Positions 3,519 to 55,292 of a DNA stretch of 64,000 nucleotides are shown piece after piece. This DNA is from Candidatus Goldiibacteriota bacterium. Its GTDB lineage: Bacteria > Oederibacteriota > PGYV01 > DYJU01. The stretch is from NCBI GenBank assembly GCA_938034975.1, contig CALHNI010000001.1:105807-169806 (forward strand). Direction: 5' to 3'. The translations under genes and the position numbers were made by a program. The notes below the pieces were generated by a model that saw nothing but the letters and a program-made list of their open reading frames with translations, did no database searches and had not been told where the DNA came from. How positions within the stretch are numbered: position 1 is the first letter of the stretch; every line of letters starts with the position of its first letter.

Positions 3519-5795
3519 TTATCCGAGGTCCTTTAATTTTGCAATTCTTTCGTTTAATTCTTCTAATCTTTTTTTTGCACTTAAATGTTCCGGATCAATT
3601 TTTAATATTGTCTCAAATTTTTCCTTTGCTTCTTTTAATTTATTCTGTTCATAAAGGTCAATTCCGATTTTATACATCTGCTGGAGTTCCTGTTCAACAA
3701 GCGGTTTTATATCTCTTAAATATTTAAGTGCAAATTCATTGGTTGGATCAATTTTTAATATTTCATTAATTTTTTCCAAAGTATCAATTATCCTGTTATT
3801 CCTGTAATATGCGTCTACTTTTTCCATAAGATCTTCCAGACGTTTTTTTAAAATTTCTTTTGCCTTTTCCAGGTAATCTTTTAATTTCTTTTCCAATGGC
3901 CTTTTCTCAATAGCTTTTTTCCATTCTTTTATTGCTGTTATAAAATCTTCTTCTAAAAATTTCACAAGTCCTTTTTGAAACGCTTCTGCTGTTATTGCTG
4001 ATTCTACATCTGTTCCACCGAAAGTTTCTGCCATCAGATTATTATAAACTTCGTCGTATTTTTGTTTTATTTTTTCCTCATTTGGATTTAAATTTAACGC
4101 ACGTTTTAAATACGAAATTGCTTCCAGAGCATTTCCCGCATTAAATGCCTCTACTCCTTTGTTAAATAATTCTTCCTGTTCTTTTTTCCCGGCTATCTCT
4201 TTTAATTTTTGTTTTGCACTCTCAATATACGTTATTGCATATGAGTTATTTGGTTCTATTTTTAAAATTTCCTGCCATTTTTTTATAGCTTCTTCTATTT
4301 TTCCTGTTTTATAAATCTCCACCCCTTCATTTAGCAAATTGGTTATATTACCAACAACCTGAATTTTTTCTTCAGCGCTTTTAATATATGCCTTAAGTTG
4401 GGCATTATCCGGATCCAAATTTAACCCTTCCTGCCATTTAACAATTGCTCCTTTTATATTACCCTTTTTATAAATATTTAACCCCTCTAACATTATTGCC
4501 TTTATCTGTTCCTGAAACTGTTCACTATTTAATTTTTGCTGAATCATCTCAAAAGCTTTTGCTATTTCCTGATTATCAGGATATTTACTTCTTAATTTAC
4601 TGTAAAATTCATAAGCTTCCTTGTAATTTCCTGCTGATAATAAAGATCTTCCCTGTTTTAACTGGTTTTCAAATTCTTTTTTTGTTTGTTCTTTGAGCAT
4701 ACTATCCAGTATTGATTGCGCCGATGCTTTGCTTGATGATATACCTTTTAAAGCAAGGTCAATTTCCTGTTGAGATGTTGCATTTTTCTTTGCTTCTTCC
4801 AAAGTTATAAGCCCCTTTTTATAAAGTGATATTAATGACTGGTCAAAAGTTTGCATCCCAAATTGTCCACCATCCCTTATTAAATCCTTTATTGAATTTA
4901 ATTTTAATTCTTCTATATATCCACTCACAGTTGGCGTTACAACCATGATTTCAACAGCAGGAACACGACCCGCTCCATCTGCTTTTGCAACAAGCCGTAA
5001 CGATATAACAGCACGTAATGCATCTGCAAGTTGTATCGCAATCTGACGTTGTTGTTCTTTAGGAAAAAAATCAAGTATCCTGTTGATCGTCTGTATGGTG
5101 TCTATCGTATGCAAAGTAGAAAAAACCATATGTCCTGTTTCAGCTGCACTTATCGCTGTTGCCACGGTTTCTTTATCTCTCATTTCTCCGATTAAAATTA
5201 CATCAGGATCCTGTCGCAAAACATATTTTAAAGCAGTTGAAAAATTTTCAGTATCAAGTCCTACTTCCCTTTGCGATATGCTTGCTTTTTTATCCGAATG
5301 AACAAATTCAATTGGGTCCTCTATTGTAACTATATGACAATTATAATTTTCATTTATTTTATCAATCATTGCAGCAAGAGTTGTTGATTTTCCTGTACCT
5401 GTTGCTCCTGTTACCAAAACCAAACCACGCGGATAAAGAGCAATTTCATTTAATATCACAGGTAAATTTAATTCTTCTAATGTTGGTATCTTAATCGGTA
5501 TTGCTCTTAAGACAACTTCCAACTTTCCCATCTGCCTGAATGCATTCGCCCTGAATCTTGCAACACCTTCCAAATTATACGCAGCATCAATTTCATTTGA
5601 TTCTTCAAATTTTTTTCTTTGTTTTTCATCCAATATGAAATATATTGCTTCTTTTAAATCACTATTTGATAATATGCTCATATCAAGCGGTAAAAGTTTC
5701 CCATCAATTCTTAAAAGCGGTGGTCTTCCTTCTTTTAAATGCAAATCCGATGCTCTTTTTTCTATCATTAAATGCAAAAGGTCTTTAATGTTCAT
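3519..5795 (-). CDS. pilT: PilT-family type IV pilus retraction ATPase fused to a roughly 400-aa C-terminal TPR-like repeat region
   Basis: 758 aa. Residues 1 to about 345 look like PilT (ASDLHL, Walker A GATGTGKSTT, Walker B-type ILIGEMRD, then HMVFSTLHT). The remainder is 6-7 repeats of the type IYK.G.I..AI.KWQE.L.I.P.N. Confidence 0.85.
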   Translation of the reverse strand: MNIKDLLHLMIEKRASDLHLKEGRPPLLRIDGKLLPLDMSILSNSDLKEAIYFILDEKQRKKFEESNEIDAAYNLEGVARFRANAFRQMGKLEVVLRAIPIKIPTLEELNLPVILNEIALYPRGLVLVTGATGTGKSTTLAAMIDKINENYNCHIVTIEDPIEFVHSDKKASISQREVGLDTENFSTALKYVLRQDPDVILIGEMRDKETVATAISAAETGHMVFSTLHTIDTIQTINRILDFFPKEQQRQIAIQLADALRAVISLRLVAKADGAGRVPAVEIMVVTPTVSGYIEELKLNSIKDLIRDGGQFGMQTFDQSLISLYKKGLITLEEAKKNATSQQEIDLALKGISSSKASAQSILDSMLKEQTKKEFENQLKQGRSLLSAGNYKEAYEFYSKLRSKYPDNQEIAKAFEMIQQKLNSEQFQEQIKAIMLEGLNIYKKGNIKGAIVKWQEGLNLDPDNAQLKAYIKSAEEKIQVVGNITNLLNEGVEIYKTGKIEEAIKKWQEILKIEPNNSYAITYIESAKQKLKEIAGKKEQEELFNKGVEAFNAGNALEAISYLKRALNLNPNEEKIKQKYDEVYNNLMAETFGGTDVESAITAEAFQKGLVKFLEEDFITAIKEWKKAIEKRPLEKKLKDYLEKAKEILKKRLEDLMEKVDAYYRNNRIIDTLEKINEILKIDPTNEFALKYLRDIKPLVEQELQQMYKIGIDLYEQNKLKEAKEKFETILKIDPEHLSAKKRLEELNERIAKLKDLG

Positions 5796-5819
5796 TATGA
5801 AAATCCCTCTAATTTAATT

Positions 5820-6821
5820 TTAAAAAGACATCGTTACCCCAAAACGATGGATTGAATTGGTCAGAAGTATTTTTAGATATTGCTGATATGTATAATCAAT
5901 AGAAAAACCTTCCATATAGATACTTCCGCCTCCTGAGATGATATATGCGTCATTTTTCTGATCAATTGAAATACCTCCGCGTAATGCAACTTTTTTAATC
6001 TGCTCCATTTGATTCAAATCAACTGCATATTCCAACCCGGCATTATAAAATTCTATCTCAGGGGAGCCTTTGTCATTTTCCAACAATTTTACTTCGCCTA
6101 TTATTAAAAAGTTATTTGTTATTCCATAATAAAAACCGCCTTTTAATATGAATGGAAGTTCTTCTTTTAAACCTGCCTGCCAGTTTAATTGATTTAAAAT
6201 ATTCTGTGCCATTATTCCCAGATTTAAATTTTCTTTTACGGCAAACATCAAAGCAGCATCCAGTCCATAACCTGAAGCTCCAATTTTTTGCCCAGAAAGA
6301 GTTAAACTGCTGTTTATTGCCATATACTTTGCATTTAATCCAATTGATAATTTCGGATATTTATATTTGTTTAATCCTAAAAATTTATCAATCTGGTATG
6401 CCCATGAAACGACTATTACATATTCATTCCAGTTATTATCAGAATCTCCTGTGAAATCTCCAGCAATATTTACAGTTGTGTAATTTAAAGCAGCTCCGAT
6501 TGCACCATATCCGGACAAATCACCCTGCGCATAACTGAGTAAATATTTTGAAATCTTGCCAGCAGAAGCAATGTCAAAAAGAGATGGTATATAAGTAAAA
6601 CTTAAACTTTTGGCTTTCGGATCAAAAAGCGACATGGCAGCAGGATTATAAATTGCCGCATTTGCATCATTTGCAAGCGCTGTAAATGCACCCCCCAAAC
6701 CAGCTGCTTTTGTCGCATCATAACCCTCTGAAAAACTGCCACCTAAAAAATTAGATTCCGCATAAATTGAAGTAAAAATTATTATTATTGCAAAATAAAT
6801 TTTTAAAAATTTTTTAATCAT
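5820..6821 (-). CDS. Outer-membrane beta-barrel protein, PorV/PorQ-like
   Basis: 333 aa with a signal peptide and an N-terminal AAGLGGAFTALANDANAAIYNPAAM motif typical of PorV/PorQ/UPF0164-type barrels. It has alternating beta-strand character and ends in F. Confidence 0.55.
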   Translation of the reverse strand: MIKKFLKIYFAIIIIFTSIYAESNFLGGSFSEGYDATKAAGLGGAFTALANDANAAIYNPAAMSLFDPKAKSLSFTYIPSLFDIASAGKISKYLLSYAQGDLSGYGAIGAALNYTTVNIAGDFTGDSDNNWNEYVIVVSWAYQIDKFLGLNKYKYPKLSIGLNAKYMAINSSLTLSGQKIGASGYGLDAALMFAVKENLNLGIMAQNILNQLNWQAGLKEELPFILKGGFYYGITNNFLIIGEVKLLENDKGSPEIEFYNAGLEYAVDLNQMEQIKKVALRGGISIDQKNDAYIISGGGSIYMEGFSIDYTYQQYLKILLTNSIHRFGVTMSF

Positions 6822-9800: not shown

Positions 9801-10186
9801 CAATTTTTGCCTGCTTTTAGGGTTGCATTATTTATCATCAAAGTATTCTGGGACGCATTTAAAGGATTGGGTGTATAGGTTGTTATTTCCCATGTTCTTT
9901 CACCATCATAAACATACATAAATCCAGGAAAAGAACCCGGGAAACTCGGACTATAAAGATAAATAGCAGATGCTGTAATGGTTGCCACTGTAACATCAGT
10001 ATATGATTTTGTAATGTCAACTGCTGCTAATCTGAAATAAATATAATCACCTATTTTAGCGGTCTGAGCAGTAGGAGTAATTGTATGGTCAAGCGAAGTT
10101 ATTACATATACTGAAAATACATTTGATTTTAAAATAAAAAGAATAAAAAAAGCACTTAACAAAAGTTTCTTTACATATTCCTTCAA
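6836..10186 (-). CDS. Large secreted surface protein with Ig-like and FlgD-Ig domains and a T9SS-type C-terminal sorting-like domain
   Basis: 1116 aa with a TTG start (10186-10184) preceded by AGGAGG, and a signal peptide. There is an internal FlgD-Ig-like segment (SPNPYNPETE...WDGLSNSG) and DT(T/S)(P/I)P Ig-domain boundaries. The C-terminus (INIYNLYGTLVRTI...FDGKNDKGANLKNGLYIMKI...) resembles Por_Secre_tail/FlgD-Ig. Confidence 0.7.
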   Translation of the reverse strand: MKEYVKKLLLSAFFILFILKSNVFSVYVITSLDHTITPTAQTAKIGDYIYFRLAAVDITKSYTDVTVATITASAIYLYSPSFPGSFPGFMYVYDGERTWEITTYTPNPLNASQNTLMINNATLKAGKNCADYLTLQYSSFSVAEGSMITGGDASIDIGTSIYGILLFDDGDMTLHNDTVAGDGVYNTKFLVRESYKFNLKNASVVGHFAVSNIKASNDGFISPSKLSIDGIRPSIELVNASPNPYNPETELLQFYYYLTENCSVKLNIFYNSVTIKTLSATGYYGFNQPILWDGLSNSGTMQTDGDFTYAFEITDSAGNTGRSYTGPLKLTTVQIWTDIYSIDAKYTNVGVPMTIVRLKVNSELKNATRQNLANLGFNYTLGETPGISHDYRNYPWLYHDVKIYNSSGGLVETFKKDSSSNYDMDLSYKDITFPQFADLLAMSGNVYAGPDLPVDLCSGDTLTVYTKGDDDKDNDWDMAFFNSFTDGTYDDGVFKMSADFIFYSKSISPGVYIGAVRGILVGKYILPIYCEDTASYIWQETVDCGGTTKTLSYYKLHVMPSYFEDESYNIISDERGYGLSSSQRTCSFIVEQDPGVPLPDTTPPQIVPYSEYPSDGSIVEPNVLGPSNYLKVMITDEGVGAGPTNLSTFTLKDPYGNPVPGRVAWNAGNPGTKSWEIYYIPDNNLTIGGRYSYTVVPVDANYNIGQSKTFTFDIKDTSIPVVTNLSVQSPSGTTNELSPSTSTQINFLVSKINATVIPGGSSDVDWTLSTITVRNNTTGNYVNGSVVHTTGTNLLVFTPNTVLSDGNYTVFVSVVSQNGYSGVYSYTFYITTAGITYINLSGTGENSTTYMIISVFTETTSGIVNSMGNTISPKSITVTAVSSPPSPPGTYALIATAVSFTAQNMPLTFNPTLCSATLRMHYTNTDIAILNNLKLTENDLTLWYYDGVTWNRITNISNPVMSGSDHYIEATITNLAQGTIFALLYSVPPTIVAIKKYTDDLRSDKVFNPEKGNAVIYFYDKDGIYLENLTEAKEIKINIYNLYGTLVRTINYPKDASYFYNYTWLGGITPVNLAYFLFDGKNDKGANLKNGLYIMKISIKKTDSEIMKTRMIVINR

Positions 10187-10210
10187 AAATTCCCTCCTGA
10201 ATCTTTTTCT

Positions 10211-10469
10211 GGTAGTGTGAAAAGTTTTAACGCTTTTTACTTAAAAATCCTTTTATTCATATACTTATGTTGCCTTTGTTCCCCCTTTATCAAAGGGGGA
10301 TGATTTTAGGGGGATTTACATCCATTATCTTTTTCTCGCTTTCTTTTAATTTAAAATCTCCCCTACTCCCTCTTTATAAAAGAGGGATAAATGTATATTA
10401 TTTTCTATACTTTTAGTATATATTTTAATCTCTGCCTTCTTTATTTTTCATAGAACTTTTCACATTACC
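10211..10469 (-). mobile_element. Family-A MITE, copy A4 (short form, 259 bp)
   Basis: On the minus strand it starts ggtaatgtgaaaagtt and ends aacttttcacactacc. It is flanked by an 8-bp direct repeat ctttttct at 10203-10210 and 10470-10477. It is near-identical in layout to copy A3. Confidence 0.85.
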
Positions 10470-10490
10470 CTTTTTCTCTTTATTTTTTAA

Positions 10491-10518
10491 ATAATAGCAC
10501 ATTTTTATAAAAAGTCAA
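10491..10518 (-). promoter_or_regulatory. Candidate sigma70-type promoter (TTGACT-N16-TATTAT) upstream of A4 and the 1116-aa gene
   Basis: Minus strand reads gcTTGACTttttataaaaatgtgcTATTATttaaa. A start here would place the A4 element in the 5' UTR. Confidence 0.4.
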
Positions 10519-12514: not shown

Positions 12515-12677
12515 GAATGCCAATAAATAAATTTTTATTTTTTTAACACATTACTTTATTCACACGTTTTTTTATTTAAAATAAAGAACAAGTGTTGTTT
12601 TAAATATTTTATTGTTTTTAAAATATATTTTTTTTGTTTTTTCCTGAAAATCTCAATATTTTAATGCGATTATCAAG
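12515..12677 (+). repeat. Family-B repeat, copy B3 (left hairpin deleted, right hairpin degenerate)
   Basis: It shares a 45-bp identical core with B6 (aaaataaagaacaagtgttgttttaaatattttattg) and the aatgccaata left flank with B2. It ends cctgaaaatctc...gcgattatcaag. Confidence 0.6.
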
Positions 12678-12683
12678 TATTTT

Positions 12684-13067
12684 TTAATCTTTTATTCCTT
12701 TGCAAAAAGTTTTTACATATTCCAGTTCTGTTTTTTCTTTTAATATACCATCCCAAAAAGGAAAAGTTCTGCATTGTTTTGGTCTTACAGAATAAATTCT
12801 ACATTTATTATTTTCAAGAAATATGCAGGATGATTCTTTTGCTCCTTTTAATACCCTGCCTGCAAATAAAATCCATTGAGTATATTTTCTTTTAAAATCA
12901 AAATAGTATAATTTAAGATAATCTGCAATCTTATGGGCTTCTGTTTTTGATATATGGATAAATCCAGGTGCTCTGCAGCAATTACCACATTGCTGGCATG
13001 CAAATTTTATTTTTATACCCTCTTTTAAATCCATCAACTCAACTCCTTTTTTTTTACATAAATTCAT
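12684..13067 (-). CDS. YkgJ-family cysteine-cluster protein (CxxCxxCC)
   Basis: 127 aa with a CQQCGNCCRAPG motif plus downstream C..C residues typical of the YkgJ/UPF0153 family. Confidence 0.7.
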   Translation of the reverse strand: MNLCKKKGVELMDLKEGIKIKFACQQCGNCCRAPGFIHISKTEAHKIADYLKLYYFDFKRKYTQWILFAGRVLKGAKESSCIFLENNKCRIYSVRPKQCRTFPFWDGILKEKTELEYVKTFCKGIKD

Positions 13068-21706: not shown

Positions 21707-21721
21707 TACAGGTAGAATTAA

Positions 21722-21932
21722 CCGTAAAAACGCGTTAGAAATTGCGTTTTTATGGAAAAACAAACTGTTTTTATCATTTTTATTTAATAAATTTTCATTT
21801 TTATAATGCATTACTTTTATTCACCTGTTTTTTAATTTTAAAAACAAATACACTCTTAAAATTCTTATTTGTTTATAAACCTTTTTATATATTTTCTCTT
21901 TTCCACTGAAAAACGCTAATGCGTTTTTCAGG
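21722..21932 (+). repeat. Family-B repeat, copy B4 (211 bp) flanked by a 9-bp direct repeat
   Basis: The sequence reads ccgtaaaaacgcgttagaaattgcgtttttatgg...ccactgaaaaacgctaatgcgtttttcagg. It is flanked by tagaattaa at 21713-21721 and 21933-21941, or 13 nt if the preceding cagg is counted. Confidence 0.8.
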
Positions 21933-21945
21933 TAGAATTAAATCC

Positions 21946-21973
21946 TTGAACTTATTTCTTAATTTGATATATT
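21946..21973 (+). promoter_or_regulatory. Candidate serS promoter (TTGAAC-N16-TATATT)
   Basis: ccTTGAACttatttcttaatttgaTATATTtat lies about 35 nt upstream of the aaggag-ATG at 22010. Confidence 0.45.
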
Positions 21974-31527: not shown

Positions 31528-31547
31528 TATCGTCTCCTTAAAAATTA

Positions 31548-31754
31548 CCGTAAAAACGCGTTAGAAAAAGCATTTTTACGAGAATATAAAATATGTCTTT
31601 TTGGTTTAATAATTTCTTATTTTTATAGCACATTACTTTAATTCACCTGTTTTTTAATTTTAAAAACATGTTCACTCTTAAAATTCTTATTTGTTTATAA
31701 ACCTTTTTTTATATTTTCTCCTTTCCGCTGAAAAACGCTAATGCGTTTTTCGGG
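31548..31754 (+). repeat. Family-B repeat, copy B5 (207 bp)
   Basis: The sequence reads ccgtaaaaacgcgttagaaaaagcatttttacg...ccgctgaaaaacgctaatgcgtttttcggg. The centre is near-identical to B4. Confidence 0.8.
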
Positions 31755-31769
31755 ACTATTAATCTTTTA

Positions 31770-31797
31770 TTGAATTTTTATTTATTCTTTGTATAAT
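31770..31797 (+). promoter_or_regulatory. Candidate tmk-operon promoter (TTGAAT-N16, TG-extended TATAAT)
   Basis: aTTGAATttttatttattctTTGTATAATgta lies about 35 nt upstream of the gaggag-ATG at 31834. Confidence 0.5.
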
Positions 31798-48817: not shown

Positions 48818-50932
48818 ATGAAGACAATTTATCTTTCTTTTTTGTGGCATATGCACCAGCCATATTATAAGAATATTGAAACAAATAAATTCATTCTTCC
48901 CTGGGTAAGATTACATGGGGTGAAAGATTATTATGATATGGTGCATATTTTGCAAAAATACCATGGGATAAGACAAAATTTTAATCTTGTGCCTTCACTT
49001 TTGAAACAAATAGAAGAATATTTGGAAGGCACAACCGATATTTTTATGGATATGACATTAAAAAGGGCTCAGGATTTAAATGAGGACGAAAGAGTTTTTA
49101 TATTAAATAATTTTTTTATGGCTAACTGGAATACAATGGTTTATCCATATAAAAGATATTCTTTTTTACTTAAAAAAAGGGGAGAAAATACCAATCCTGA
49201 TGAAATAAGAAAAATACACAAAAATTTTTCAATTGATGAAATAAGAGACCTGCAAACCTGGTTTAATTTAACCTGGGTAGACAGTGATTTTTATAGTGTG
49301 TTTCCCGAACTAAAAAAATTAAAAGATAAAGAAGAAAATTTTTCTGAAGAAGAAAAAAAATTTGTTATTGATACCCACATCAAAATTTTACGTATGATAA
49401 TACCTGAATACAAAAGCATGCAGCAAAACGGAATTATAGAAATTTCAACGACTCCTTTTTATCATCCAATTTTACCCTTATTATGTAATTCAAAAATAGC
49501 AAAAGTTTCATTACCTGATTTACAAATTGATTTTGATTTTTCCTGTCCTGATGATGCAAAAGTTCAGGTTGAAAAAGCAATAAAATATTATGAGGAAAAA
49601 TTTGAAGTTAGACCATATGGTTTCTGGCCATCCGAAGGGTCTGTGAGTGATGAAGTAATAGATATATTTATAAAAAACAATATAAAATGGATAGCAACGG
49701 ATGAAGATATTTTAAAAAAGACGCTTTCTGAAAATAATAATAACGAAGTTAATATTTACAAACCTTATTTGTTTAATAGCGATTCGGGGAATATTAATAT
49801 TTTTTTCAGAAATCATTATTTATCTGATTTGATTAGTTTTACCTATCAATCCTGGAATACAAATGATGCCATCAATCATTTTATTTCAGAGATACAAAAA
49901 ATCGGAGAAAATAGCAAAGATAATATATGTCACATAAGTGTAATTTTGGATGGTGAAAATGCCTGGGAATATTATCCTAATGATGGTAAAGAATTTTTAA
50001 ACGGCCTTTATGAAAGTTTTAAAGAAAGTAAAAATATAAAACTTATAACTCTTAATGAAGCAACACAAATTTTTAAAGATAAACAGATTCTTACAAAAAT
50101 TTTTCCTGGTTCATGGATAAATCATGATTTTTATATCTGGATAGGGCATAAGGATGACAGAAAGGCATGGCAATTATTAAAAATGACAAGGGATGATTTA
50201 ATCAAAAAAAACATACAGGATAAAGAAATTTTAAAGAAAGCATGGGAAGAAATTTATATAGCGGAAGGAAGCGACTGGAATTGGTGGTATGGCGATGATC
50301 ATTCATCAAAAAATGATGCTGAATTTGATAATCTTTTCAGATTACATCTTATGAATGTATATAAACTTATAAATGAACCAATTCCGGATATTTTATATAT
50401 GCCGATTACAAAAGCAGATAGGACATTTTTTTTACAGCCATCAAAATTTATATATCCGGAGATAGACGGAGTAATAACTAATTTTTTTGAATGGCGGGGA
50501 GCAGGCGTTTATGATTTCTCTTATGAAGGAACTATGCATAATTTAGATAGGTATACAAATTCGCTTTATTATGGATTTAACACAGAAAATTTTTATATAC
50601 GGATTGATTTTTTAAATAAAAAATTTTTAAAAGAAGATATTTTGGAAATTAAATTTATTTCAGAAAAAGAAACAGGGACAATAAAAATAAATTTATCAGA
50701 TTTACAGATAAAATCAGATATTGATTTAAAAGATGTTTTATTAAATTTTAAGGATATAATGGAGATAAAAATACCATTTGAAAATATTAAAAGGTTTGTC
50801 AATAATAACGAAATAAGTTTTATCGGATTTATAAAAAGAGCAGAAAACCTGATTGAAAAGTTGCCTGAAAAAGGTGCAGTAAAAATACAGGTTCCTGAAA
50901 AAGATTTTGAACTTTATAACTGGGTAGTTTAA
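48818..50932 (+). CDS. Glycoside hydrolase family 57 protein (alpha-amylase / 4-alpha-glucanotransferase type)
   Basis: 704 aa with HMHQPYY, WPSEGSVS, DGENAWEYY and EGSDWNWWYG motifs characteristic of GH57. Confidence 0.8.
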   Translation: MKTIYLSFLWHMHQPYYKNIETNKFILPWVRLHGVKDYYDMVHILQKYHGIRQNFNLVPSLLKQIEEYLEGTTDIFMDMTLKRAQDLNEDERVFILNNFFMANWNTMVYPYKRYSFLLKKRGENTNPDEIRKIHKNFSIDEIRDLQTWFNLTWVDSDFYSVFPELKKLKDKEENFSEEEKKFVIDTHIKILRMIIPEYKSMQQNGIIEISTTPFYHPILPLLCNSKIAKVSLPDLQIDFDFSCPDDAKVQVEKAIKYYEEKFEVRPYGFWPSEGSVSDEVIDIFIKNNIKWIATDEDILKKTLSENNNNEVNIYKPYLFNSDSGNINIFFRNHYLSDLISFTYQSWNTNDAINHFISEIQKIGENSKDNICHISVILDGENAWEYYPNDGKEFLNGLYESFKESKNIKLITLNEATQIFKDKQILTKIFPGSWINHDFYIWIGHKDDRKAWQLLKMTRDDLIKKNIQDKEILKKAWEEIYIAEGSDWNWWYGDDHSSKNDAEFDNLFRLHLMNVYKLINEPIPDILYMPITKADRTFFLQPSKFIYPEIDGVITNFFEWRGAGVYDFSYEGTMHNLDRYTNSLYYGFNTENFYIRIDFLNKKFLKEDILEIKFISEKETGTIKINLSDLQIKSDIDLKDVLLNFKDIMEIKIPFENIKRFVNNNEISFIGFIKRAENLIEKLPEKGAVKIQVPEKDFELYNWVV

Positions 50933-50956
50933 ATGATAAGTAGTTTTTAATTTTTA

Positions 50957-51383
50957 GATAATGTGAAAAGTTCTATGAAAAAGAAAGAAGTCAGAGATTA
51001 AAATATATACTAAAAGTATAGAAAATAATATACATTTCCCCCTCTTTTAAAAAGAGGAGGCAGGCGAGATTTAAAAATAATGAATCAAATTTCCCAGAAA
51101 TCTCCTTTTTACAAAGTGGTAGAAAAAAAGAAAGAGGAGGAAAATCGCTCTTAGTCTCCCTTTTGCAAAGGGGGAGAAAAAAAATAAGAATAAGAATAAA
51201 AAATTCCTCTCTTTAATAAAGAGGGGTTAGTGGAGATTTTAAATTAAAAGAGAGCGAGAAAAAGAGAATGGATGTATGTAAATCCGCCTAAATCCTTCTT
51301 TGATAAAGGTGGAACAAAAGGCAACCAAAGTATATGAATAAAAGGATTTTTAAGTGAAAAGCGTTAAAACTTTTCACAATACC
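50957..51383 (+). mobile_element. Family-A MITE, copy A1 (long form, 427 bp)
   Basis: It starts gataatgtgaaaagtt and ends aacttttcacaatacc. It is flanked by the 8-bp direct repeat aattttta at 50949-50956 and 51384-51391. Confidence 0.85.
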
Positions 51384-51407
51384 AATTTTTATGGCAGGAG
51401 GAAAAAT

Positions 51408-52685
51408 ATGAAAGTGCTTGTTGTAGGAAGTGGTGGCAGAGAACATGCATTAACGTGGACAATTTCTAAAAATAAAGATATTAAAAAAATTTATTGTGCG
51501 CCGGGAAATGCAGGGACAGAAGGTATAGCAGAAAACATTCCAATAAATGCTGAAGATATTGATGAATTATTAAAATTTGCAGAAGAAAAAAATATAGATC
51601 TTACTGTTGTTGGTCCTGAAATACCTTTGATTAACGGTATTGTTGACATTTTTGAAGAAAAAGGATTAAAAATTTTTGGACCAGGTAAAGATGCAGCACA
51701 ATTAGAAGGGAGCAAGAGTTTTACAAAGAACCTGCTTAAAAAAAATAATATACCAACTGCTTTATTTTTGGAAACTGATTTGCCGGAAAAAGCAAAAGAA
51801 TTTATTATTAAAAATAAAAAATACCCTATTGTGATAAAAGCGGATGGTCCGGCAGCAGGTAAAGGCGTAATAATATGTGAAAATGAAAACCAGGCAATAA
51901 ATGCAATAGATGATATAATGATAAAAAAGATTTTTAAAGAAGCAGGTGAAAAAATTGTTATAGAAGAATTTTTAGAAGGAGATGAGGCAAGTATACTTGC
52001 TTTGACAGATGGAAATACAATTTATCCTTTACCACCTTCCCAGGATCATAAGAAAATTTTTGATGATGATAAAGGACCTAATACAGGAGGAATGGGGGCC
52101 TATGCTCCTACTCCGCTTATCAGCAAAGAACTTGAAAAAAAAATACTGGATAAAATTTTATATCCAACTTTAGATGGGTTAAAGCGTGAAGGTATAATTT
52201 ACAAAGGTATAATGTATGCAGGTCTTATGATATGTAACCAGGAACCTTATGTTCTTGAATATAATGTGAGATTCGGGGATCCTGAGACCCAGGCAGTTTT
52301 GCCGCTTTTAAAGTCAGATATTATTGATTTGTTTTTTTCATCAATAGATGGGAGTCTAAAAAATAAAAAACTGGAAATAGAAAATAAAGCAGCCATAAAT
52401 GTTGTCATAGCATCTGAAGGTTATCCCGGAAATTATGAAAAGGGAAAAGTCATAAAAGGTCTTGATGCATTTAAAGACAGACAGGATATAATTATATTCC
52501 ATGCCGGCACAAAAAGGCAGAATAATGATATTGTGACTGCTGGTGGTAGAGTATTAAATATTACAGCCATTGATAAAGATATAAAATCAGCAATTGAAAA
52601 AGTGTATAGTGAAATAAATAAAATAAGTTTTGAAGGAATGTATTATAGGACAGATATAGGAAAACGGGTATTTAAATATTTATAA
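51408..52685 (+). CDS. purD: Phosphoribosylamine-glycine ligase
   Basis: Start trimmed to the ATG at 51408 (RBS aggagg), because the longer track ORF begins inside the MITE. It has MKVLVVGSGGREHAL, an ATP-grasp region and NVRFGDPE. Confidence 0.95.
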   Translation: MKVLVVGSGGREHALTWTISKNKDIKKIYCAPGNAGTEGIAENIPINAEDIDELLKFAEEKNIDLTVVGPEIPLINGIVDIFEEKGLKIFGPGKDAAQLEGSKSFTKNLLKKNNIPTALFLETDLPEKAKEFIIKNKKYPIVIKADGPAAGKGVIICENENQAINAIDDIMIKKIFKEAGEKIVIEEFLEGDEASILALTDGNTIYPLPPSQDHKKIFDDDKGPNTGGMGAYAPTPLISKELEKKILDKILYPTLDGLKREGIIYKGIMYAGLMICNQEPYVLEYNVRFGDPETQAVLPLLKSDIIDLFFSSIDGSLKNKKLEIENKAAINVVIASEGYPGNYEKGKVIKGLDAFKDRQDIIIFHAGTKRQNNDIVTAGGRVLNITAIDKDIKSAIEKVYSEINKISFEGMYYRTDIGKRVFKYL

Positions 52686-52735
52686 AAATTATTGAATAAA
52701 AGCAAATCACACAAAAATGTGTAGAGATAATGTGA

Positions 52736-53126
52736 AAAGTTCTATGAAAAAGAAAGAAAACAGAGATTAAAATATATACAAAAAGTATTGAAAATAATAT
52801 ACATTTCCCCCTCTTTTAAAAAGAGGAGGCAGGGGAGATTTAAAAATAATGAATCAAATCCCCCAGAAATCTCCTTTTTACAAAGTGGTAGAAAAAAAAA
52901 GAGGAGGAAAATCGCTCTTAGTCTCCCTTTTGCAAAGTGGGAGAAAAAAATAAAAATAAGAATAAAAAATTCCTCTCTTTAATAAAGAGGGGTTTAAATT
53001 AAAAGAGAGCGAGAAAAAGATAATTGATGTATGTAAATCCGCCTAAATTCCCTTTTGATAAAGGGGGAACAAAGGCAAAATAAAAAGGATTTTTAAGTGA
53101 AAAGCGTTAAAACTTTTCACAATACA
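52736..53126 (+). mobile_element. Family-A MITE, copy A2 (long form, 391 bp)
   Basis: It has the same termini as A1. It is flanked by the direct repeat tgtgtaga at 52728-52735 and 53127-53134 (9 nt, atgtgtaga, if the junction base is counted). Confidence 0.88.
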
Positions 53127-53150
53127 TGTGTAGATTAAAGGAGGTTATCT

Positions 53151-53663
53151 ATGAAAGTTGCTATTGTTGTTGGCAGTGATTCTGATTTACCGGTTATTAA
53201 TGAAAGTATAAAAATGTTTGAAAAGTTCGGTATAAAAGTTTCAGTAAATATTGCTTCGGCGCATAGAACACCTGATAAAATAAAGAAAGTTTTAAAAGAA
53301 ACTGAAGATTGTGAAGTGATAATTGCAGCAGCAGGTATGGCAGCTCATCTTCCTGGCGTGATTGCTGCACAAACAATTAAACCTGTTATAGGTATTCCAA
53401 TGCAGGGTGGTGCATTAAATGGTATAGATGCACTTTTTTCCATAGCGCAGATGCCATCTGGTGTTCCGGTTGCTACGGTTGCAATAGGTAAGGCAGGCGC
53501 TATAAATGCAGCATTACTTGCTGTTGAAATACTCTCTTTAAAATATAATAAATTAAAAGACAAAATAAAAAAATACAGGAAAGAAATGGCAGATAGTATA
53601 AATACAAAAGATATAAAATTGCAAAAAATTGGTATAGAAAAATTTATTGCAGAATTAAAATAA
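53151..53663 (+). CDS. purE: 5-(carboxyamino)imidazole ribonucleotide mutase
   Basis: 170 aa with VGSDSD, SAHRTP and AGMAAHLPGV motifs. Confidence 0.95.
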   Translation: MKVAIVVGSDSDLPVINESIKMFEKFGIKVSVNIASAHRTPDKIKKVLKETEDCEVIIAAAGMAAHLPGVIAAQTIKPVIGIPMQGGALNGIDALFSIAQMPSGVPVATVAIGKAGAINAALLAVEILSLKYNKLKDKIKKYRKEMADSINTKDIKLQKIGIEKFIAELK

Positions 53664-54209
53664 ATGATTACTAATATAGTCAATATATTAAATAGAGGCG
53701 GAATTGTAATTTTACCAACTGATACTGTTTATGGCATTTTTGCGTTGAGCGATAACAAAAAAGCAATAAATAAAATTTATGATATTAAAAAAAGAGATTA
53801 TAAAAAACCATTACAAATTTTTTTACCGGATATAAAATCAATAAAAAAATATGCAATTATAAATAAAAATAACAAAAAATACATTGATAAATTTTTACCA
53901 GGAAAATATACATTGATTTTTAAAATACGTAAAAAAAATAAAAAAAAATTTATATTTTTAAAAGATGATACAATAGGTATCAGAGTTATAAAATACAGAG
54001 TGCTTAATGAGATTTTAAAAAAACTAAATAAACCACTTGCCGCAACAAGTGCAAATTTTTCAGGTGATAAAACGCCATGCAAATTCAGTGAAATTAATAA
54101 AAAAATTATTGAAAGTGTGGACTATTTTTTAAAAGATGATAGTGTGGTAAGTGGAAAACCATCAAGAGTAATTGATGTGTCAGGAAAGGAAATCAAAGTT
54201 TTGAGATAA
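53664..54209 (+). CDS. tsaC: L-threonylcarbamoyladenylate synthase, TsaC/YrdC type
   Basis: 181 aa with ILPTDTVYGI, KKRDYKKPL and LAATSAN.SG motifs. Confidence 0.8.
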   Translation: MITNIVNILNRGGIVILPTDTVYGIFALSDNKKAINKIYDIKKRDYKKPLQIFLPDIKSIKKYAIINKNNKKYIDKFLPGKYTLIFKIRKKNKKKFIFLKDDTIGIRVIKYRVLNEILKKLNKPLAATSANFSGDKTPCKFSEINKKIIESVDYFLKDDSVVSGKPSRVIDVSGKEIKVLR

Positions 54210-54288
54210 AAAAATTTATTTTTTATTAGCATTTTTTATATTTTCTTTTCTCAATAGCGTTTTAAAAAGGAATTTTTTCTATCACATC

Positions 54289-54463
54289 TCGTAAAAATAC
54301 GTAAGAAAACGCGTTTTTACTGGAAAACAAAATTTTTTATTATTTTTATAATGCATTATTTTTATTTGCCTGTTTTTTAATTTAAAATAAAGAACAAGTG
54401 TTGTTTTAAATATTTTATTGTTTTTTTTCTTCTGAAAATCGCGAACTTTTAAAGATTTTTAGG
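54289..54463 (+). repeat. Family-B repeat, copy B6 (175 bp)
   Basis: The sequence reads tcgtaaaaatacgtaagaaaacgcgtttttactgg...aaaataaagaacaagtgttgttttaaatattttattg...cttctgaaaatcgcgaacttttaaagatttttagg. Confidence 0.75.
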
Positions 54464-54476
54464 ACATAAAAATCAA

Positions 54477-54505
54477 TTGACAACAATAATATTATTTATT
54501 ATACT
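54477..54505 (+). promoter_or_regulatory. Strong sigma70-type promoter (TTGACA-N17-TATACT) for the tRNA-Phe/tRNA-Thr (and possibly rpsP) unit
   Basis: aaTTGACAacaataatattatttatTATACTtttt lies about 30 nt upstream of the tRNA-Phe 5' end. Confidence 0.6.
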
Positions 54506-54535
54506 TTTTTTAAAAAAAAAGCAGGAATTTATGGT

Positions 54536-54611
54536 GCCGAGATAGCTCAGTCGGTAGAGCGACAGACTGAAAATCTGTGCGTCGGCGGTTCGATTCCGTC
54601 TCTCGGCACCA
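54536..54611 (+). tRNA. tRNA-Phe (anticodon GAA), encoded CCA
   Basis: Hand-folded. The acceptor is gccgaga/tctcggc and the D-arm tagctcagtcggtagagc. The anticodon stem is acaga/tctgt with loop ctGAAaa, the T-loop is ttcgatt, and the 3' end is aCCA. Confidence 0.92.
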
Positions 54612-54625
54612 TTATTTAATTTTTT

Positions 54626-54701
54626 GCCGGCGTAGCTCAGTGGTTAGAGCAACGGTTTCGTAAACCGTAGGTCGTGCGTTCAAATCGCATCGCCGGCTCC
54701 A
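54626..54701 (+). tRNA. tRNA-Thr (anticodon CGT), encoded CCA
   Basis: Hand-folded. The acceptor is gccggcg/cgccggc and the D-arm tagctcagtggttagagc. The anticodon stem is acggt/accgt with loop ttCGTaa, the T-loop is ttcaaat, and the 3' end is tCCA. Confidence 0.92.
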
Positions 54702-54727
54702 GTTGTGAGGAATTTAACTAATTTTTA

Positions 54728-54986
54728 GATAATGTGAAAAGTTCTATGAAAAAGAAAGAAGGCAGAGATTAAAATATATACTCTAAAAGTATTGAAAATA
54801 ATATACATTATCCCCTCTTTAATAAAGAGGGGTTAGGGGAGATTTTAAATTAAAAGAGAGTTAGAAAAAGAGAATGGATGTGAATCCCCCTAAAATCCCC
54901 CTTTGATAAAAGGGGAACAAAGGCAAAAGAAGTATATGAATAAAAGGATTTTTAAGTGAAAAGGATAAAAAACTTTTCACAATACT
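54728..54986 (+). mobile_element. Family-A MITE, copy A3 (short form, 259 bp)
   Basis: It starts gataatgtgaaaagtt and ends aacttttcacaatact. It is flanked by aattttta (54720-54727) and aatttttt (54987-54994), a 7/8 match. Confidence 0.82.
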
Positions 54987-55010
54987 AATTTTTTAAGGAG
55001 GAGTTTTTTT

Positions 55011-55292
55011 ATGGCTGTTATTATGAGATTAAAGAGGATGGGTAGAGAAAAAGTTCCTTTTTTCAGGATTGTTATAGCAGATGATAGAAGATCAGCCAAA
55101 GGCGGCAGATATATTGAGGAAATTGGACATTATTATCCTGTAAAGAATTTGGTTAAGATTGATAATGAAAAGGCATCAATCTGGTTAAGCAAAGGTGTAA
55201 GAGTTTCAGAAACAGTAAAGGCGCTTTTGAAAAAAAATGGAATTTCTTTACCTGTAAAAAGTAAAAAAAAGAAAAAAGATAAACAAGAATGA
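55011..55292 (+). CDS. rpsP: 30S ribosomal protein S16
   Basis: 93 aa starting MAVIMRLKRMGREKVPFFRIVIADDRRSAKGGRYIEEIGHYYP. Confidence 0.95.
   Translation: MAVIMRLKRMGREKVPFFRIVIADDRRSAKGGRYIEEIGHYYPVKNLVKIDNEKASIWLSKGVRVSETVKALLKKNGISLPVKSKKKKKDKQE

Follow-up and report, generated by a model that had tools for sequence, protein, structure and literature searches.

Family A, a miniature inverted-repeat element located immediately before start codons in a Candidatus Goldiibacteriota bacterium

Four copies of one non-coding sequence, here called Family A, lie in the 64-kb stretch of DNA that was analysed (the window), and our results show that Family A is a real, previously uncatalogued MITE family, ordinary in kind. 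The initial annotation of this DNA had proposed a non-autonomous DNA transposon (MITE), and this interpretation is supported by every generic feature of such elements that was tested: the copies have terminal inverted repeats (TIRs), are bracketed by target-site duplications (TSDs), measure only 259-427 bp, hold no conserved ORF, are dispersed over unrelated loci, are missing from the corresponding sites of relatives and have a fifth, complete counterpart in another species. Taken as a whole, with its inferred parts included, the account of Family A as a non-autonomous DNA transposon is in our view very likely to be right. Two regularities absent from the initial annotation are added here: the orientation is strict, and the spacing to the start codon of the gene that follows is fixed.

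Copies, ends and target-site duplications

The four non-coding, TIR-bounded copies described initially were read directly and aligned, and all of them are present. The earlier coordinates were exact for c1, c2 and c4, but copy c3 starts at 52726 and not at 52736, which makes it 401 and not 391 bp long, and its left duplication, formerly placed at 52728-35, lies at 52718-25, a slip of 10 nt. The copies, with the TIRs of c2 and the duplications of all four, are:

10211 to 10469, minus strand: c1, a short-form copy of 259 bp that is inverted within the window and belongs to the 5' UTR of the gene for a 1116-aa FlgD_ig-domain protein (TTG start at 10186, minus strand)
50957 to 51383, plus strand: c2, a long-form copy of 427 bp that separates a GH57 gene (stop at 50932) from purD (ATG at 51408)
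52726 to 53126, plus strand: c3, a long-form copy of 401 bp that separates purD (stop at 52685) from purE (ATG at 53151)
54728 to 54986, plus strand: c4, a short-form copy of 259 bp that separates tRNA-Thr (end at 54698) from rpsP (ATG at 55011)
50957 to 50972, plus strand: left 16-bp TIR of c2, GATAATGTGAAAAGTT
51368 to 51383, minus strand: right 16-bp TIR of c2, whose reverse complement is GGTATTGTGAAAAGTT
50949 to 50956, no strand: left TSD of c2, AATTTTTA
51384 to 51391, no strand: right TSD of c2, AATTTTTA, followed by tggc-AGGAGG-aaaaat-ATG
52718 to 52725 and 53127 to 53134: duplication of c3, TGTGTAGA
54720 to 54727 and 54987 to 54994: duplication of c4, AATTTTTA on the left and AATTTTTT on the right
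10203 to 10210 and 10470 to 10477: duplication of c1, CTTTTTCT

The perfect 11-bp TIR core reported earlier, TGTGAAAAGTT, is exact at all eight ends, and the full TIR extends to 16 bp, G[G/A]TA[A/T]TGTGAAAAGTT, gapless between the ends once the terminal base that had been left as N is included. The 64 kb contain exactly eight instances of the 11-mer, each of them an element end; with one mismatch allowed it is found at 14 sites, against 4.5 expected. Pairwise identity within the family is 90-94%, reaching 96.7% between c2 and c3. An nhmmer profile of Family A recovered exactly these four copies from the window and neither another copy nor a fragment. Extension past the window ends brought no additional copy either; the extending contigs end in a different repeat family.

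The presence of 8-bp duplications around each copy was likewise borne out. The flanking 8-mers are aattttta/aattttta in c2, tgtgtaga/tgtgtaga in c3, aattttta/aatttttt in c4 and ctttttct/ctttttct in c1, matching at 8/8 positions in c1, c2 and c3 and at 7/8 in c4, while the chance of an 8/8 match is 2e-4 per site at random window positions and 1e-3 for AT-rich 8-mers alone. The copy outside the window, found in a Ca. Calidifonticultor MAG (L002), carries a flanking duplication as well (tataaaaa/tataaaaa, 8/8). In c3, c4 and the L002 copy there is ambiguity about the terminal base and the register of the duplication (8 or 9 bp): the last base of c3 (A) and of c4 (T) would equally serve to open a 9-bp duplication (9/9 and 8/9). 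This ambiguity is without effect on the conclusions.

Mis-drawn boundaries, or segmental duplications of a conserved intergenic unit, could in principle imitate such an element, and two copies (c2 and c4) do share the flanking 8-mer AATTTTTA. However, the 8-mers at c1, c3 and the L002 copy are different, and in the alignment of the four copies the sequence outside the 8-mers is unrelated, the downstream GGAGG excepted. Since the flanks past the 8-mers do not align across copies, the boundaries hold. The orthologous sites are, in addition, empty in relatives, and we regard the absence of any element as extremely improbable.

The search for empty sites that the initial annotation had suggested found all four window insertion sites unoccupied in relatives of conserved gene order, and Family A is absent from all of those relatives' contigs. 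Contigs with PurD homologues 85%, 84% and 79% identical retain the order GH57-purD-purE-sua5. The GH57-purD spacer, the site of c2, measures 17-18 nt in L011 and L013-L016, and the purD-purE spacer, the site of c3, measures 24 nt in L012 and 12 nt in L013-L016, at the two positions where the window has inserts of 427 and 401 bp. The c4 site is empty in L021, L022 and L023, whose RpsP homologues are 78-79% identical; the order tRNA-Phe, tRNA-Thr, rpsP is kept there, and the spacers upstream of rpsP (38-41 nt) align to the window flanks after removal of the element and one 8-mer. The c1 site is empty in L024, L025 and L026, and in homologues of the 1116-aa protein (85%, 74%) a conserved TTGACT-16-TAT(G/T)AT promoter is followed by a short leader. 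Because these relatives are 74-85% identical at protein level, 'empty' refers to absence of the element from the orthologous spacer and not to a base-perfect pre-insertion site, although at rpsP it is roughly that.

In the 84% relative (L012) the GH57-purD spacer is 245 nt long and holds an unrelated insert at 254-498 with (GCTGATT)n-type short tandem repeats. As this insert differs from Family A, the spacer was struck independently by another kind of sequence. Within the window, three of the four copies fill three successive eligible spacers within 4 kb (50949-54994: purD, purE and rpsP), and the two long-form copies, c2 and c3, are neighbours as well as the most alike, which is suggestive of local hopping for the clustered c2, c3 and c4.

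Position and orientation before start codons

The right end of the element lies 24 nt from the start codon in each of the four window copies and 25 nt from it in the L002 copy. When the final conserved base of ...CACA[A/C]TAC serves as the reference, the spacing is 25, 25, 25, 25 and 26 nt, whichever terminal-base assignment is used. The layout consists of the element, the 8-bp duplication, ~5 nt, GGAG(G), ~6 nt and the start codon, which places the right end ~13 nt upstream of GGAGG, and all complete copies (5/5) are in sense orientation with the downstream gene.

All complete copies are situated within a transcribed 5' leader or an intercistronic spacer: c2 and c3 are within an operon, c4 is behind two tRNAs with a strong upstream promoter, and c1 stands between a conserved promoter and the Shine-Dalgarno motif (SD). 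The promoter of c1 is:

10491 to 10518, minus strand: host promoter-like TTGACT-16-TATTAT, 21 nt upstream of the c1 left end

TTGACT-16-TATGAT is found in L024 and L025, and since the upstream promoter is conserved in element-free relatives, c1 should be transcribed in the leader. Upstream of tRNA-Phe/tRNA-Thr, a sigma-70-like promoter, TTGACA-17-TATACT (11/12), is located at 54477-54505 of the window and is conserved in L021 at ~5720-5750, which implies read-through of the rpsP operon across c4.

Under a conservative uniform null over tolerated positions, that is, positions at which neither the SD nor the upstream feature is disturbed (19 to 45 per site), the probability of all four window copies falling at one offset is ~2e-5. 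For a sample of five copies, the fixed position could stem either from a choice of target site guided by the ribosome-binding region or from selection after insertion. A target preference for an AT-rich stretch directly 5' of the SD, read as a DNA motif, is favoured, because the shared offset is this improbable even among tolerated positions. The element or its transposase would then pick its targets relative to the translation-initiation region and in one orientation, with an 8-bp staggered cut whose 3' edge falls ~5 bp upstream of GGAGG, 24 nt before the start codon; we put this joint claim forward tentatively and with considerable reserve. One possibility, if targeting does take place, is that an activity binding the internal AAAG(A)GG(A/G)G repeats also recognises the GGAGG motif. 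Such a targeting step has no precedent in the bacterial MITE and IS reviews consulted, which contain no description of a MITE or IS aimed at ribosome-binding regions.

The orientation may be set by the asymmetric ends of the element or by later selection. Sites with a terminator-like hairpin and T-run are mainly on the minus strand of the element, and the opposite orientation would for this reason probably be polar on essential genes; a single orientation would then have been kept because the reverse places these signals before such genes. The same opposite-strand signals could, however, purge the other orientation of a MITE that has no special targeting, enters any AT-rich 8-mer and owes its offset and orientation to purifying selection in a compact genome and to small-sample luck. 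Room for insertion is consistent with this account, which we consider possible but rather doubtful: the median upstream spacer in the window is 8 nt, just 18 of 59 genes have one of at least 24 nt (four of these 18 being occupied), and c1, between its conserved promoter and its SD, has ~19 tolerated positions, all in a sample of five. Selection of this kind, on the other hand, accounts for the orientation and for a lower limit on the distance, yet leaves unexplained why 4/4 copies agree to the nucleotide, and the copy from a different species is positioned at 25 nt.

Interior of the element and its predicted RNA

Going beyond the initial annotation, Family A falls into two length classes, short and long, which differ by a hairpin block of 153-167 nt. 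The parts conserved in the family are a left arm of ~100 nt and a right arm of ~120 nt, between which the extra block is placed in c2 and c3. The interior features are:

51071 to 51237, plus strand: long-form-specific block of c2 (167 nt), corresponding to 52840-52992 in c3 (153 nt), with three extra C-rich/G-rich hairpins, located by alignment
51354 to 51377, plus strand: right-end local hairpin of c2, GTGAAAAG-N8-CTTTTCAC

The interior hairpins are of the type YCCCYCTTT-loop-AAAGRGGGR; short copies have two of them, long copies five, and the motif is confined to the elements (21/21 of its matches in the window). The right-end hairpin amounts to an extra, inner copy of the TIR core that is inverted relative to the right TIR, and the ends are asymmetric because only the right one carries this additional copy. 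It is intact in c2, c3 and c4 and degraded in c1 and in the L002 copy.

Comparison of the ORFs agreed with the initial annotation on the lack of coding capacity, as no ORF is conserved between copies in any of the four, and none of the seven element ORFs is present in the protein collection or was ever called as a protein. A search of the window with Rfam 15 gave only tRNAs at the gathering score and no family for the element; at E<=1, the sole overlap with an element was a chance-level mir-320 match in c2 at 51145-51189 (20.7 bits vs gathering 55.5, E=0.29). The element's interior yielded no strong conserved promoter; its best match (9/12) is ATGAAA-18-TAAAAT in c2, c3 and c4. An outward hybrid promoter, with its -35 (TTCACA) in the right TIR, was considered and rejected, since the matching -10 position falls on the SD.

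The predicted RNA fold of the element is better than that of shuffles, with z = -4 to -5. Together with the sense orientation of all copies, their location in transcribed leaders and their fixed distance from the start codon, this would suit a domesticated cis-regulatory leader, once mobile and now kept as an RNA that controls translation or stability of the downstream gene by means of the TIR stem, SD-like and anti-SD-like hairpins and the right-end hairpin, which ends at about -31. The hairpin arms do resemble AAAGGAGG / CCUCCUUU by inspection. However, the downstream genes are functionally unrelated (purD, purE, rpsP, the gene of the secreted FlgD_ig-domain protein and pta), relatives do without the element, there is no Rfam match, and the right-end hairpin is not maintained in c1 and L002. 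Covariation analysis of 3 to 5 near-identical copies gave a single compensatory pair vs several broken pairs, and with copies so few and so alike this amounts to no evidence of selection on RNA structure. Domestication is thus unlikely, and as MITE copies the elements would now be passively co-transcribed as structured 5' leaders.

Transposase, known systems and other genomes

For a MITE of this kind, a DDE-type transposase encoded elsewhere would bind the 16-bp ends, cut the target with an 8-bp stagger and join the element to it, and gap repair would then generate the 8-bp duplication. That the window itself holds no transposase, as stated initially, was confirmed by Pfam/NCBIfam scans, which found no transposase or integrase domain in the window ORFs; the window genes are housekeeping only. 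A search for an autonomous element with Family A ends, which had been suggested along with a comparison of the TIR, found none in the window, the relatives' loci, the viral collection, the plasmids or the genome and metagenome left-end matches listed, and the comparison gave partial matches to the ends of IS26 and IS1.

Judged by the sequence of the ends, the 8-bp duplication and the GG...TG tips would fit IS6, IS1 or IS1595, and the transposase may belong to one of these families. IS1 has ends of the type GGnnnTG and duplications of 8-9 bp, and IS1595-group elements have 8-bp repeats. Family A ends agree with the verified IS1 IRR in their first 7 nt, GGTAATG, but at 12/23 positions overall, and no IS1-type transposase was found for Family A. 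Members of the IS6 family have 8-bp repeats, and their IRs, 15-20 bp long, show GG tips together with cTGTt/caaa motifs; two MITEs of 227 and 336 bp are reported for the family (PMC7986276). Family A qualitatively resembles IS6/IS26 in its 8-bp direct repeat, the length and G-G tips of its IR, the TGT at positions 6-8 followed by an A-run, as in GGTAATGTGAAAAGTT, and a size in the range of those two MITEs. The verified IS26 IR is nevertheless matched at just 8/14 positions, the GG tip is intact in 3/8 Family A ends, no IS6-type transposase was found for Family A, and IS6 is not known to target ribosome-binding regions.

Mobility of another type, either REPIN/PATE-like by a Y1 transposase (RAYT or IS200/IS605) or as a BOX-like recombining repeat, has been weighed on account of the hairpin-rich interior, a Y1_Tnp ORF in a relative, the PATE-like appearance of a second repeat family of the window and a modular length variation that recalls BOX elements (PMC3049150). 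We find it very improbable, because Y1-mobilised elements such as REP/REPIN or IS200/IS605-type PATE have neither TIR nor TSD and every Family A copy has both. Pneumococcal BOX (boxA-boxB(n)-boxC) does share conserved ends, variable internal modules, length classes, transcription in intergenic positions and stable folds with Family A (PMC3049150), but Family A varies by one block instead of by tandem boxB count and has clear 8-bp TSDs and a longer TIR.

Among the prokaryotic MITEs, Nezha, Correia/nemis, RUP and MITEAba12 have in common with Family A the TIRs, short TSDs, a size of 50-800 bp, the absence of a transposase and the intergenic location, as well as stable predicted folds, co-transcription with neighbours and evidence from empty and filled sites (PMC3184786; PMC11602168; PMC3049150). 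The Family A sequence is unrelated to any that was encountered, with no Rfam family and no match in the plasmid or viral collections, and its TSD is 8 bp long, whereas TA is typical of Correia and RUP. For Nezha, Correia/nemis, RUP and MITEAba12 the reviews consulted do not describe the strict orientation and constant spacing to the start codon that Family A shows. Neisseria REP2 and the Borrelia IR repeats also occur immediately upstream of ORFs (PMC3184786). In contrast to Family A, REP2 has no TIRs and has its own promoter, RBS and ATG (PMC3184786), and the Borrelia repeats have their own RBS and ATG and no TIRs; the RBS and start codon behind Family A are those of the host; they form no part of the element, and relatives have them at their empty sites. 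The mycobacterial interspersed repetitive units (MIRUs) are similarly intercistronic, within polycistronic mRNAs, and backed by empty and filled sites (PMC3184786), but they are 40-100 bp long, with ~4-bp direct repeats, small ORFs overlapping the flanking genes and tandem arrays.

A search for the 22-nt left end among 185,579 species-representative genomes led, among the matches listed, only to the Ca. Calidifonticultor daggyaiensis MAG. Its contig L002 (JACVJA010000006.1) holds the complete copy of 269 bp mentioned above, which brings the complete copies known to five, four in the window and one in this other species. A scan of JGI metagenomes with the 19-nt left end gave at least six loci, mainly chance matches; L006/L009 (one sequence listed twice) and L010 were rejected as chance 19-mers, and L008 is a relative whose contig ends within the left arm of the element, with one left end. 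No viral contig matched in a scan with both element ends, and BLASTN of the element against plasmids gave noise alone. Short-read contigs of the same organism, 100% identical to the window, break within the right arm of copies c3 and c4, which is what a multi-copy repeat should cause.

The same MAG has a variant element at 3080-3440 of contig L001, with three direct repeats of AAAAGTTCTnTGAAA within its left 200 nt; a normal left arm and first hairpin come next, and the contig stops just past a possible ATG. This variant could be a nested or composite copy, and its AAAAGTTCTnTGAAA repeats are the sole hint of multiple transposase-binding sites. Two further loci, L005 1230-1421 and L007 1-161 (minus strands; 55% GC, two JGI samples), have an exact 27-nt match to the c1 left end. 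About 150 nt further they read ...TTCTTTTGATAATACC, then 8+5 nt and GGAGG, so that the right end is loosely similar and 13 nt before GGAGG; the flanking 8-mers match at 5/8 positions and the stop codon of the upstream ORF is inside the match. These loci may be a distant relative of Family A in an unrelated host or a coincidence, and were left out of the evidence.

The host belongs to an uncultured, 28% GC, hot-spring-associated lineage, for which Family A is a routine addition to the catalogue, of use mainly as a strain marker and, given the breaks in short-read contigs, as a warning for assembly and annotation. Should the fixed position prove general, Family A would be a natural system for placing structured leaders before genes and a new case of how DDE elements choose their targets; the question would then arise how essential operons (purD-purE, rpsP-trmD-rplS) tolerate structured leader inserts of 260-430 nt. 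If the targeting is true, it would represent a MITE/IS system directed to 5' leaders with specificity for site and orientation, a mode undescribed in the bacterial MITE/IS reviews consulted.

A second repeat family, unrelated to Family A and common to the window and the Ca. Calidifonticultor MAG, has copies of ~200 nt at 2640-2830, 12520-12690, 21720-21950, 31545-31770 and 54290-54430 of the window and at 5095-5310 of L002. Its ends are different palindromes, CCGTAAAAACGCG...CGCGTTTTTACGG at the left end and CCTGAAAAYCGC...GCGATTTTCAGG at the right; a TIR is lacking, and the anatomy resembles that of IS200/IS605-derived palindrome-associated elements. The short-read contigs L017 and L018 break in this family. 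In L013, the relative with 79% PurD identity, a Y1_Tnp ORF with a Bac_DnaA_C match and an IS3-type rve ORF are located at 5053-6006 and 2126-2908, a few kb upstream of the empty purD sites; an enzyme of the kind of this Y1 protein could be responsible for mobilising the second repeat family.
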